Below, piece by piece: positions 31,948 through 34,378 of a DNA stretch of 64,000 nucleotides. The translations under genes and the position numbers were made by a program. The notes below the pieces were generated by a model. That model saw only the letters and a list, made by a program, of their open reading frames with translations, was not told the DNA's origin and searched no databases. The DNA comes from a virus: UHGV virus genome UHGV-0134996; one strand, written 5' to 3'. How positions within the stretch are numbered: position 1 is the stretch's first letter; each line of letters opens with the position of its first letter.

Positions 31948-31964
31948 AAATTTATTAGAGCAAT
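31948..31964 (-). promoter_or_regulatory. C1 operator-like 17-mer, perfect 17/17
   Basis: Plus strand aaatttattagagcaat; overlaps dmt stop; faces tRNA-ban operon. Confidence 0.75.
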
Positions 31965-34378
31965 ATTGCTATAACGTCATGAGCAACACCTCGAGTGTCC
32001 CCCTTACAAGACACAGAACGTCTGGCAAAAAGAGGTTCCACTCTGAAGCCACTGTCCTGATAAAGTTCTCTGATGTTTGGCGCGCCACTGTTAGTAATGA
32101 GAACCTTTGCACCTCGGCGATGAGCATCCGTCAACAGAGACACCAGGCGTTTTTGCTCTTCAAACTTAAAGTCATGACCGGAATAGTTCGTGAATCCCTC
32201 TGTATTTGGGAGCGGTTCATACGGCGGATCGCAAAAGATGACATCTCCTTCTCCGGCAGCTTCAATCACCGCAGCAAAATCACCACATACAAACTCAGAA
32301 CGCCCTTCCGCACCAAGGAAGGCTTCCATCTCCTGCAATGGGAAATACGGAGTTTTATACTTCCCATAACCGACATTGAACTCACCGGCTTGGTTGTAAC
32401 GCGTCAATCCGTTAAAACAATGTCGGTTCAGGAACAAAAACGCCGCTGCGCGATGTAAATCATCATAGACTTGTTTGTTAAACGCATTCCGTACTGCCAG
32501 GTATCCTTCCTGCGTGTTGTAGTCCTGGAAGAAACGATGTGCCAGAGTGATAAGTGAATGCGCCTCGCGTTGCAGAGTCTTGTAAAAGTTAATCAGGTCA
32601 GCATTCACATCATTTAGCAGATTTTCCTGGTATCCGGCATTCATGAAGACAGCTCCGCCACCAACGAAAGGTTCAATCAGGCGCTTCCCTTCTGGCAAAT
32701 AGCGAAAGATTTGTTCCAGAACACCAAATTTTCCACCAGCCCATTTGAATATGGACCGTTCGAATTCTGCCGCTGGTTTAACTTTTCGCTCTTTTGTTTC
32801 ACTTCCTTCTTTCTGCCGACATGCAGCCTTGGTAATCCGCTCGCCAATCCAGCGCATTACTGGTATCGCCATACTATTGCCGATCGCTTTGTAACGAGGT
32901 CCGTCAGCTGCAAGCATGGCGGCCTCTTCTTCACTTAAATCAGGATCGTGATTGCGAAGGTATATAAGTTCATCTGAAGTAACTTTCTTACGCTTTCCCG
33001 TTGGAATCAACGTATGTCCATCAGGAAAACCTTGCAGCCTTTCACATTCGACAGGAGTCAGACGGCGAACGCTCATCATATGAGGTAAGTAACCATTCTC
33101 ACCTAATTCGCCTTTTTCAATACTTTCCTGCCCCCAAAAAGATAACGCAACGGCGTCAGCTGTTGCGCGGGAATCAAGAGTAAAACTTATCTCTTTTTGC
33201 CACCCTTTACCCTGCGGTCCAGCATCATCTTTTCGCCCAATTTGTGCATGTTGTAGCGAATACGCAACAGCTGGTGGGCATCCCGCGTTTTGATTGCTAT
33301 TAGCAGAGTTACCAGCTCGTAAAGTTGGGGAAATCTCAACACCCGCATCCTGCCCATAATTTTTGCTTGTAAACGCAATAGCTTTCTTGCAAGAAAACAC
33401 AATTGGAGCTTCATGATTACAAGTAAGAGTAGGTGATGTCCCATCATTTTTTATTTCTGCCCCCCCTTGCCCATGCGCCATGCAATACACAAGTCCGCTG
33501 CCTCGCTGCGCAAAAATCTCTTGGTTACTTGCACCAATCCCACCAGTATTGTGTGACTGGTTAAGTGTCGGGTGAGGATTTACAGGGTTATCCCAATGGC
33601 TCCCGCTTTTAATGCCATTTCCAACATTTCCGGCAACTTCCTTCCCCTCGCCTCTGCTCGGCGCAATATCCCGGCGCACGCCTTCGAACTCAAAAAGTAC
33701 CGTTGCGGGATCGAGGTCTGTTCGAGCACTTGCGACAACAAACACGCGTCGGCGTCGTTGTGCCACTCCGAAGTATTGGGCATCAAGGATTCTCCAGGCC
33801 ACCTTTCGCTGCGGTCCATAAATACAACCACACTGCGGCCACTTTGGAGCATGGCAACCGGTTTTGCCATCCCACCGCCAGAACGCGTTACTTTTTCCTG
33901 ATTCAGGTCGATCACCTGGTTCAAATGGCGCATCTTCTCCAGCCAATCCGGCAAGGAAACATCCGAAGGCGTTATCTGCCGATGACAGGACTCCTGGGAC
34001 ATTTTCCCAGACGATAACTGTCGGTTTGAGGAAGGACTCAGACCGTTTGTCGTCAATTGCATTTGCAAGCTCCACATACTTCAAAGTTAGCGCGCCGCGT
34101 TCATCATCAAGCCCACCACGTAAGCCCGCGATACTGAATGCCTGACAAGGCGTACCCCCGACGAGCACATCAGGGGATTCGATTTCCCCAGCCAGGACTT
34201 TTTTGGCAAGTTTTGTCATGTCGCCAAGGTTGGCGACATGGGGCCAGCGGTGCGCAAGAACGGCAGATGGAAAAGGCTCGATTTCAGCAAACCACGCCGG
34301 ACGCATACCCAACGGTTCCCAGGCAATACTCGCGGCTTCAATTCCACTGCAAACAGATCCATAGCACAGCTCTTTCAC
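31955..34378 (-). CDS. dmt: Fused DNA methyltransferase: N-terminal C5-cytosine MTase + C-terminal Dam-like N6-adenine MTase
   Basis: 807 aa; C5 motifs [20 protein letters not shown]; Dam-like [20 protein letters not shown]. Confidence 0.9.

Follow-up and report, generated by a model that had tools for sequence, protein, structure and literature searches.

The dmt gene and its operon

The window, a stretch of 64,000 nucleotides of the viral genome UHGV-0134996, contains a methyltransferase gene embedded in an operon with the following features (in the order of transcription):

35600–35645, minus strand: C1 operator Odmt and promoter Pdmt, with the same sequences as Op68 and Pdmt in the P1 annotation
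35273–35557, minus strand: uhr, which opens the operon and encodes a 94-aa protein of the NTP pyrophosphohydrolase family (phrog_2213, E=7.9e-64 over the full length; P1 synteny)
34375–35280, minus strand: hrdC, middle gene of the operon, RdgC family, 301 aa (PF04381, E=6e-98; size and position as in P1 hrdC)
31955–34378, minus strand: dmt coding sequence, 807 aa plus stop, bifunctional C5-cytosine/N6-adenine DNA methyltransferase (open reading frame list, Pfam and NCBIfam domains)
31937–31964, unstranded: Oban, bivalent C1 operator made up of two inverted operator matches, which overlaps the dmt stop and marks where the downstream tRNA/ban operon begins

The operator Odmt occupies positions 35629–35645 and reads ATTGCTCTAATAAATAT. 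Within the uhr-hrdC-dmt operon, dmt comes third; its start (GTG) and the stop of the rdgC/hrdC gene upstream share 4 nt (GTGA), and Oban and the tRNAs follow. The gene is intact, with a C5-cytosine methyltransferase half at aa 1–520 and a Dam-type N6-adenine half at aa 540–807. The original prediction of a single 807-aa polypeptide in which a C5 and a Dam-type enzyme are fused is borne out by the open reading frame list and by the PF00145 and PF02086 matches, and all motifs that it quoted are found (PCQ at aa 77, ENV at aa 125, FKWAGGK at aa 544 and DPPY at aa 717).

On the DNA level, the gene is 97.6% identical to dmt of Salmonella phage SJ46 over 100% of its length, and 96–98% identical to the dmt genes of P1, P7 and RCS47 across 76% of the window gene. 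Compared with P1 dmt, identity reaches 99.7% at gene nt 1–722 and 95.9% at nt 1309–2424; the DNA comparison gave no P1 match for nt 723–1308. An alignment of the protein with P1, P7 and SJ46 Dmt shows near-identity outside aa 241–436. The SJ46 protein (YP_009293579, 807 aa) represents the same allele type with few substitutions (97% protein identity). P1 Dmt (P1_gp069, 754 aa) has operon, operator, promoter, domain order and Dam domain in common with the window, and synteny with P1 extends across 10 kb at 96.6–98.0%. The comparison of domain order with P1 Dmt, which had been called for at the outset, thus yields the same arrangement, with the C5 part N-terminal and the Dam part C-terminal. The window gene is therefore the ortholog of phage P1 dmt, carried by a P1-like (Punavirus) phage-plasmid. 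Since domain order, operon, C1 operator and flanking DNA all agree with P1, the C5/N6 fusion is not new but already described, and the allele type is public (SJ46 and a dozen plasmids). By itself, the fused methylase is of little consequence, as it is the annotated dmt of P1-like phages. In E. coli and Salmonella, P1-like phage-plasmids are a common vehicle of resistance genes, and dmt is present on 497 PLSDB plasmids.

In agreement with the original prediction, no endonuclease adjoins the gene; its neighbours are uhr, hrdC, tRNA-Asn, tRNA-Thr, plp, upl, tciA and ban. Beside dmt we found no cognate nuclease gene, and within the 64-kb window there are no open reading frames of res or mod size, the largest ones being packaging, partition, head and tail genes. 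As a nuclease gene is absent from the neighbourhood, dmt qualifies as an orphan methylase.

The two methyltransferase halves

The regions of the protein that would carry the two activities, and the GATC clusters relevant to the second one, are:

33659–34378, minus strand: C5 catalytic part, aa 1–240, with motifs I (CSGIE), IV (GGTPCQ, Cys78), VI (ENV) and VIII (QRRRR)
34142–34150, minus strand: PCQ catalytic motif, aa 77–79, uninterrupted in the window allele (allele alignment)
32819–33067, minus strand: C5 motifs IX–X, aa 438–520 (motif positions, P1/P7/SJ46 alignment; AF2 pLDDT 75–89)
31958–32761, minus strand: Dam-type N6-adenine methyltransferase domain, aa 540–807 (PF02086, TIGR00571, E. 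coli Dam structures)
3559–3715, unstranded: pac-type cluster of seven GATC sites, grouped 3 + 4, within the 5'-terminal part of pacA (GATC clustering; pacA and pacB identified)
37897–37953, unstranded: cluster of five GATC sites, which maps via the P1 alignment to the annotated oriR/incC Dam sites 1–5

The C5 half matches the C5 DNA methylase family PF00145 (E=2.5e-36) and the NCBIfam model TIGR00675 dcm (112 bits; cut-off 100.65), and M.HhaI and M.HaeIII match its aa 51–131. Motif VIII (QRRRR) lies at aa 207, motif IX at aa 438 and motif X (GNS) at aa 500. According to an AF2 prediction for aa 1–540, calculated from a 38-sequence alignment, the core is modelled confidently, with pLDDT values mostly between 80 and 95 in the catalytic part (aa 1–240). 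The CSGIE form of motif I is normal for the subfamily, as SGIE or SGVE is found in 51 out of 79 representatives, and the GGTPCQ context is the norm as well. The P1 reference Dmt, on the other hand, carries a G74W exchange within GGTPCQ that is absent from all other alleles and representatives compared; the window allele has the canonical sequence. Otherwise, the catalytic core is nearly invariant among the aligned dmt alleles. The P1 annotation words the activity of this half as "perhaps at C5 cytosine". A literature search on the C5 activity of P1 Dmt found no report of its target, and searches on C5 activity, cassette variation and the intein (see below) yielded no more than remarks about GATC and pac, together with a gene table and a table of essentiality by CRISPRi.

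In about 26% of the dmt alleles elsewhere, a 341-aa intein is inserted at Cys78 (130 plasmid records with the intein versus 497 carrying the 5' part of dmt in PLSDB). The sister allele P0001 (1148 aa) corresponds to the window-type protein plus this intein, and P7-type Dmt likewise occurs in a 672-aa form and a 1013-aa form with the intein. The boundaries read TP|C...HN|CQAF. Judging from the canonical Cys1, His-Asn and Cys+1 residues, the intein is expected to splice, thereby restoring the motif.

The C-terminal half matches PF02086 MethyltransfD12 (E=5.3e-57, aa 546–779) and TIGR00571 dam (251.7 bits, above the cut-off of 114.85), and scores 245.6 bits with NF008152, the equivalog model for chromosomal E. 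coli Dam, for which the cut-off is 441 bits. Judged by its sequence, the Dam half of the window is thus a phage paralogue and not the host enzyme. It aligns with the E. coli Dam structures (PDB 2g1p, 4gbe) at E=5e-58 and has the D12-class fold and the FxGxG and DPPY motifs in common with that enzyme (motif I, FVGGG, at aa 571). The equivalents of K9, N120, L122 and R124 of E. coli Dam, residues that we take to contact GATC, are conserved (aligned K545, N656, L658 and R660), whereas P134 is replaced by Gly at the aligned position. Another difference is that E. coli Dam is not fused, while the window Dam is fused behind a C5 methylase.

For P1 Dmt, GATC methylation by the Dam half is needed for pac cleavage and packaging, and it provides independence from host Dam (PMC12707154, PMC11437467); dmt of P1 is dispensable in Dam+ hosts (PMC10695390). 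In P1, the GATC cluster at pac serves as the cis target for Dam methylation (PMC12707154), and its counterpart in the window is the 3 + 4 cluster listed above. In P7, an internal late promoter, LPdam2, has been predicted, which might yield a Dam-only product; the counterpart in the window differs at several positions.

A variable cassette between C5 motifs VIII and IX

The segment without a match in P1 coincides with the region between motifs VIII and IX and can be divided into modules:

33071–33656, minus strand: variable cassette, gene nt 723–1308, aa about 241–436, 586 bp between C5 motifs VIII and IX
33485–33613, minus strand: module A, aa 256–298, present in alleles P0001–P0007, absent from P1 and P7
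33389–33484, minus strand: module B, aa 299–330, related to the sole module of P7-type Dmt
33257–33382, minus strand: module D, aa 333–374 (allele alignment)
33131–33256, minus strand: module E, aa 375–416; alleles P0004 and P0006 have an unrelated module, E', in its place

From its position, where target-recognition domains (TRDs) are located, the cassette is presumed to be an array of target-recognition modules. Its edges relative to P1 are sharp on both sides. Its identity to the SJ46 sequence is 98.8%, and 11 PLSDB plasmids carry it at 100% identity; the full cassette is present in 15 of the 497 dmt-bearing PLSDB plasmids, and among 5426 complete E. coli genomes 11 have it. Identical SJ46-type alleles are seen in P1-like plasmids of E. 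coli, Salmonella and E. albertii. The base composition of the cassette gave no foreign signature (46.7% GC, as against 47.3% for the 3' portion of dmt). A word-indexed protein search with the cassette retrieved only short cytosine methylases with generic names; none was a characterised enzyme that could lend it a specificity.

The four modules, A, B, D and E, have one [PF]TL motif each, and a BLASTP self-comparison detected no similarity among them. Across the dmt alleles, which range from 672 to 870 aa, size is set by the presence or absence of discrete modules. P7-type Dmt has the same scaffold and Dam domain as the window protein and a single module, which is related to module B (78% DNA identity at gene nt 893–983; 73% protein identity), but it lacks A, D and E. 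The VIII–IX block of P1 Dmt, in turn, is unrelated to that of the window: it consists of a module C and a short tail (178 aa), as opposed to A+B+D+E (231 aa). Module D is only 68% identical to the D of the 862-aa alleles, yet the flanking modules A and E are 100% identical. The 862-aa type is built as A-C-D-E, and a 768-aa type as A-B-E'.

The same units recur outside of Dmt. In a set of 150 representatives (clusters at 50% identity), module edges are where local matches begin and end (the N-terminal edge of module D, for instance, is marked by a pile-up of alignment starts), and 35 module architectures can be distinguished. The order is D before E in 17 representatives and E before D in 18; B-D-A and B-A arrangements occur as well. 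A+B and D+E frequently travel together. Module A, the most frequent single module among the representatives, occurs alone in Vibrio phage methylases (about 67% identity), is unusually conserved and generally comes first. Because of this high conservation and its usual first place, module A may have a structural role instead of conferring specificity. The length of the variable region tracks the number of [PF]TL motifs, which increases from a mean of 0.7 in regions of less than 140 aa to 2.2 in those above 320 aa. These alignments show that the modules are shuffled among Dmt alleles and appear singly or permuted in other phage cytosine methylases.

A similar organisation is known from the Bacillus phage enzymes M.SPRI, M.Phi3TI, M.SPbetaI and M.H2I, which are phage-encoded and have no partner nuclease, like the window Dmt. 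In both groups, one core is combined with an enlarged VIII–IX region that harbours tandem short [PF]T[LV] modules, and the module combinations vary between related phages. The distance between motifs VIII and IX amounts to 231 aa with four [PF]TL motifs in the window and to 191 aa with two in M.SPbetaI, which is bispecific; the P7 type, at 96 aa and with a single motif, matches ordinary single-TRD enzymes in size. A fused Dam domain, as in the window Dmt, is absent from the Bacillus enzymes. In a BLASTP search, M.SPbetaI matched only motif IX and, at 24% identity (E=1e-9), the core; its TRDs showed no homology to the modules. Moreover, multispecificity is proven for the Bacillus enzymes, for which the concept of a multispecific phage C5 methyltransferase family has been introduced (PMC8936443, PMC12707154), whereas for the window Dmt it is a prediction.

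Proposed role of Dmt and competing readings

Taken as a whole, we assign the following scenario a probability of roughly 0.8. Given the P1-identical promoter and operator, Dmt would be silent in the lysogenic plasmid and made once C1 repression is lifted. As the uhr-hrdC-dmt operon is C1-repressed, methylome sequencing of a lysogen would miss Dmt. For the detection of m5C, bisulfite, EM-seq or nanopore calling is suitable, but not standard SMRT. In view of its near-identity to P1 Dmt and of P1 genetics, the C-terminal Dam domain would methylate GATC. By keeping the seven pac GATC sites methylated, it would enable PacAB to cut and start headful packaging even with little or no host Dam. The N-terminal domain, with its intact motifs I, IV, VI, VIII, IX and X, would generate 5-methylcytosine at target sites chosen by the VIII–IX block. 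Most likely, the C5 half would methylate progeny DNA in advance, so that it resists Type II restriction on entering the next host, and module shuffling would retune or broaden the range of protected sites. That the protein is a self-protective anti-restriction methylase, as originally proposed, can only be inferred, and at most for the C5 half. Since m5C would also expose the DNA to McrBC-type restriction, protection may not be the sole selective force.

How many of the modules act in one protein is a separate matter. Our tentative view, for which we would claim somewhat less than even odds, is that at least two of them are active at once, making the enzyme multispecific. With the same reservation we suggest that A, B, D and E are autonomous TRDs, which P1-like phage-plasmids and many Gram-negative phages may shuffle as cassettes. 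The C5 half would then represent an unrecognised enterobacterial counterpart, with non-homologous TRDs, of the multispecific methylases of Bacillus phages, joined to a packaging-licensing Dam activity. A methylase with recognition modules swapped between otherwise identical genes would constitute a determinant of host range and anti-restriction, akin to tail-fibre or hsdS variation, and its modules would amount to a naturally occurring library of portable units for m5C recognition.

Alternatively, Dmt could be monospecific, with one working module that recognises a single cytosine motif, as presumably in the P7 type, while the rest are pseudo-TRDs, linkers or recombination debris. We regard this as less likely than not, but as a serious alternative. 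AF2 gave no confident fold for the predicted modules, as all pLDDT values at aa 231–437 are below 50, and the lack of detectable mutual similarity in the self-BLAST points in the same direction. The Bacillus phage enzymes include inactive pseudo-TRDs. Furthermore, since A+B and D+E travel together, there could be fewer than four functional units. It is difficult to see, however, why debris should stay in frame and be 100% identical in many plasmids, or why every module should have its own [PF]TL motif. Across many enzymes, the modules are freely ordered and vary in copy number, and the [PF]TL count rises with the length of the variable region, which likewise argues against inert surplus modules.

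It is improbable that the C5 half is dead or repurposed, for example for DNA binding or tethering of the Dam half, so that GATC methylation alone matters. Of the two activities of P1 Dmt, the papers cited here document the Dam function alone (PMC12707154, PMC11437467), and the cautious wording of the P1 annotation, the G74W exchange in the P1 reference and the intein that splits the catalytic Cys in roughly a quarter of the alleles would all fit an inactive enzyme. In the window allele, though, all catalytic motifs are intact, including GGTPCQ, ENV and QRRRR, the core hardly differs between alleles, and the intein would be removed by splicing. The turnover of recognition modules is hard to reconcile with an inactive enzyme.

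Finally, a methylase belonging to a restriction-modification system with a nearby endonuclease, or an undescribed fusion ordered unlike P1 Dmt, is ruled out inside the window: the only candidate, an open reading frame at 4537–5580 labelled "HNH endonuclease" in PHROGs and in the SJ46 RefSeq entry, is the conserved P1 gene pdcB, which matches only DUF968 in Pfam and lies 27 kb from dmt, the genes flanking dmt are all P1 genes, along with tRNAs, and the order of the domains is that of P1 Dmt.

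Identity of the fused methyltransferase gene

Judged by its sequence, the window belongs to a P1-like (Punavirus) phage-plasmid, and the reading frame under study is its dmt gene. In a megablast search, the gene matched dmt of Salmonella phage SJ46 at 97.6% over the full length; genes of P1, P7, RCS47 and related phages, each annotated as dmt or dam, matched 76% of its length at 96-98%. Window positions 27756-37977 align with a 10-kb P1 stretch (oriR to ban) at 96.6-98.0%, and synteny is broken only inside dmt and over a short segment separating tRNA-Thr from plp. The genes follow the P1 order, i.e. 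uhr, hrdC (RdgC), dmt, the Oban operators, tRNA-Asn, tRNA-Thr, plp, upl, tciA, tRNA(CAT) and ban.

Features of the dmt gene
31955..34378, minus strand: dmt reading frame, 807 aa, GTG start
34142-34150, minus strand: PCQ codons of dmt (C5 catalytic motif), uninterrupted in the window

The start codon shares the sequence GTGA with the stop of the upstream gene. That the product is a fused C5-cytosine and N6-adenine methylase, as originally predicted, is borne out by the ORF call, by Pfam matches to C5 DNA methylases (PF00145, E=2.5e-36, in two stretches around an unmatched middle) and D12-class N6-adenine methylases (PF02086, aa 546-779, E=5.3e-57), by NCBIfam scores exceeding the cut-offs (TIGR00571 dam, 251.7 bits; TIGR00675 dcm, 112 bits), and by solved E. 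coli Dam structures, which align end to end with the C-terminal half (E=5e-58). The same protein contains the motifs PCQ (aa 77), ENV (aa 125), FKWAGGK (aa 544) and DPPY (aa 717), together with the FxGxG motif of Dam enzymes and three more C5 motifs (VIII, IX, X). C5 motif I reads CSGIE, an odd-looking form that is nevertheless usual in this subfamily. In a protein alignment, the window protein has the domain order of P1 Dmt (754 aa), P7 'Dam' (672 aa) and SJ46 Dmt (807 aa), with C5 preceding Dam, and except for aa 241-436 all four are nearly identical. The comparison of domain order with P1 Dmt, which the original prediction had proposed, therefore reveals not a different fusion but Dmt itself, which is already known.

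The predicted orphan status also stands, as no nuclease gene was found among the genes flanking the operon. The proposed anti-restriction function, on the other hand, is not the documented job of the Dam half, which is packaging licensing. An ORF labelled 'HNH endonuclease' (4537-5580, minus strand, 347 aa) was rejected as a partner of dmt: it is pdcB, a conserved gene of P1, 27 kb away, and its HNH label stems from PHROGs (phrog_96) and the SJ46 RefSeq record, while Pfam gives DUF968 only. The biggest ORFs of the window correspond to P1 genes for packaging, partition, the head and the tail, and the P1 Type III res/mod genes, if present in the element, lie outside it.

Several minor differences were noted in the neighbourhood. 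The break between tRNA-Thr and plp (30860-31033) has no P1 match, and the plp ORF, which lacks a PHROG match, comprises 139 aa in the window versus 125 aa in P1. The tRNA at 29423-29498 (minus strand) is called tRNA-Met (CAT) by ARAGORN, whereas its syntenic counterpart is annotated in the P1 record as trnI, an ileX-like tRNA-Ile2; such a tRNA would need lysidine modification for reading AUA. Just upstream of the operon and divergent from it, an upfC homologue (35727-36011, plus strand) shows a weak PAAR-motif match (26 bits, cut-off 27), and P1 upfC is annotated in the same way.

A variable cassette in the C5 half

When the dmt genes of P1 and the window are compared at the DNA level, gene nt 1-722 are 99.7% identical and nt 1309-2424 are 95.9% identical, and nt 723-1308 (window 33071-33656) have no P1 match whatever. 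This cassette follows C5 motif VIII (QRRRR, aa 207) and precedes motif IX (aa 438), in the region that harbours the target-recognition domain (TRD) in C5 methylases. It is 100% identical in 11 plasmids from E. coli, Salmonella and E. albertii. Of the 497 PLSDB plasmids with the conserved 5' part of dmt, just 15 have the full cassette, and among 5426 complete E. coli genomes only 11 carry it. A protein census yielded Dmt scaffolds of 672, 710, 754, 768, 807, 822, 856, 862 and 870 aa, and an alignment with one member per class revealed that the classes differ in which discrete modules are present. Each window module has one [PF]TL motif, SFTLDSRA being among them.

Module composition of Dmt alleles (E' is an unrelated replacement of E)
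Window / SJ46 type: A-B-D-E
P7 type: B
P1: C plus a short tail
862-aa type: A-C-D-E; A and E 100% identical to the window, D just 68%
768-aa type: A-B-E'

Two further observations concern the remainder of the protein. In the 870-aa allele (cluster P0007), the Dam half is 72% identical to that of the window while the C5 core is 99% identical, so the Dam half is exchangeable as well. The P1 reference record (L001:4001-6265) reads VLVWGTPCQ at aa 74; the remaining 10 members of the allele alignment have GGTPCQ, and no family representative has W there. G74W sits in catalytic motif IV and may be a laboratory-strain lesion, which may mean that the C5 half of that strain is impaired.

Modules as candidate recognition domains

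We consider it possible, with a probability of about 0.4, that the C5 half is multispecific and that its modules are autonomous recognition domains. Several findings suggest that the modules are independent of one another. Searching 1.84 billion representative proteins (50% identity clusters) with just the cassette gave 830 hits (165 below 1e-10), and the local matches start and stop at module edges, with ends concentrated in three query intervals (61-70, 136-150, 176-180) and starts in one (96-100). Separate module queries disclosed 35 architectures among 150 representatives. D precedes E in 17 of them and E precedes D in 18; module A mostly comes first, although B-D-A and B-A orders were also found, and some modules are duplicated. 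The smallest variable region (129 aa) consists of A and C only, and a lone module A with ~67% identity is present in Vibrio phage methylases, CP-T1 being one such phage. The longer the variable region, the more [PF]T[LVI] motifs it contains.

A comparable arrangement is seen in M.SPbetaI (mtbP, phage SPbeta), a bispecific C5 methylase. Its motifs VIII and IX are 191 aa apart and enclose two motifs (SPTLTTMGGG, FTVNTIDRHG), as compared with 231 aa and four motifs in the window enzyme and 96 aa and one motif in the P7 type. With an enlarged region carrying several motifs, the window Dmt would, on paper, work like the Bacillus phage enzymes with their tandem-TRD principle (PMC8936443, PMC12707154). 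No sequence similarity was detected between the window modules and those of M.SPbetaI, the cassette searches returned no characterised relative, and AF2 gave no confident model for aa 231-437. Alternatively, the enzyme could be monospecific, with one module active and the others inert, a reading that we regard as only slightly less probable. The modular recognition cassette is the sole lead that deserves follow-up.

Intein, regulation and Dam sites

An intein of 341 aa (Hint_2 and LAGLIDADG_3 domains) interrupts dmt in about 26% of the plasmids that carry the gene (130 of some 497); we found no published description of it. It sits exactly before catalytic Cys78 of PCQ (TP|CFTAGH...VVHN|CQAF) and has the canonical Cys1, His-Asn and Cys+1 residues. 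Among the intein-bearing allele clusters are P0001 and P0019; P0001 equals the window protein plus the intein, whereas the window allele has an empty site.

Since the C1 operator Odmt (35629-35645) and the promoter Pdmt are identical in sequence to those of P1, and the bivalent operator Oban overlaps the stop codon of dmt, the operon should, going by the P1 annotation, be kept off by C1 in the lysogenic plasmid and come on once that repression is lifted. The C1 operator consensus ATTGCTCTAATAAATTT has 11 window matches with at most 3 mismatches versus 0.33 expected by chance, and these would map the C1 regulon across the window.

Operator matches and GATC clusters
1212, 16121, 18214/18263, 21887, 50582, 52726: examples of C1 operator matches from the consensus scan
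3559-3715, within the pacA 5' end: pac-type GATC cluster, 7 sites (3 + 4), same arrangement as P1 pac
37897-37953, at oriR: oriR/incC GATC cluster, 5 sites

These two clusters are the classic groups of Dam sites; in total, the window contains 245 GATC sites, in line with the 249 expected from base composition. GATC methylation at pac is needed for P1 packaging, and Dmt provides it if the host is without Dam (review PMC12707154; PMC11437467); Dam+ hosts allow the loss of dmt, according to the CRISPRi table of PMC10695390. In the P7 record, a late promoter (LPdam2) is predicted within the gene and upstream of the Dam half, which might yield a Dam-only product; in its window counterpart (32959-32994, dmt aa 462-474) several positions differ.

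Fusions of C5 to N6 methylases also occur outside P1-like elements (cassette-search representatives P0123, P0121, P0148, P0140 and P0136, at most 50% identity). Some of them carry the unrelated PF05869 Dam class in place of D12, which suggests that such fusions arose repeatedly and independently.
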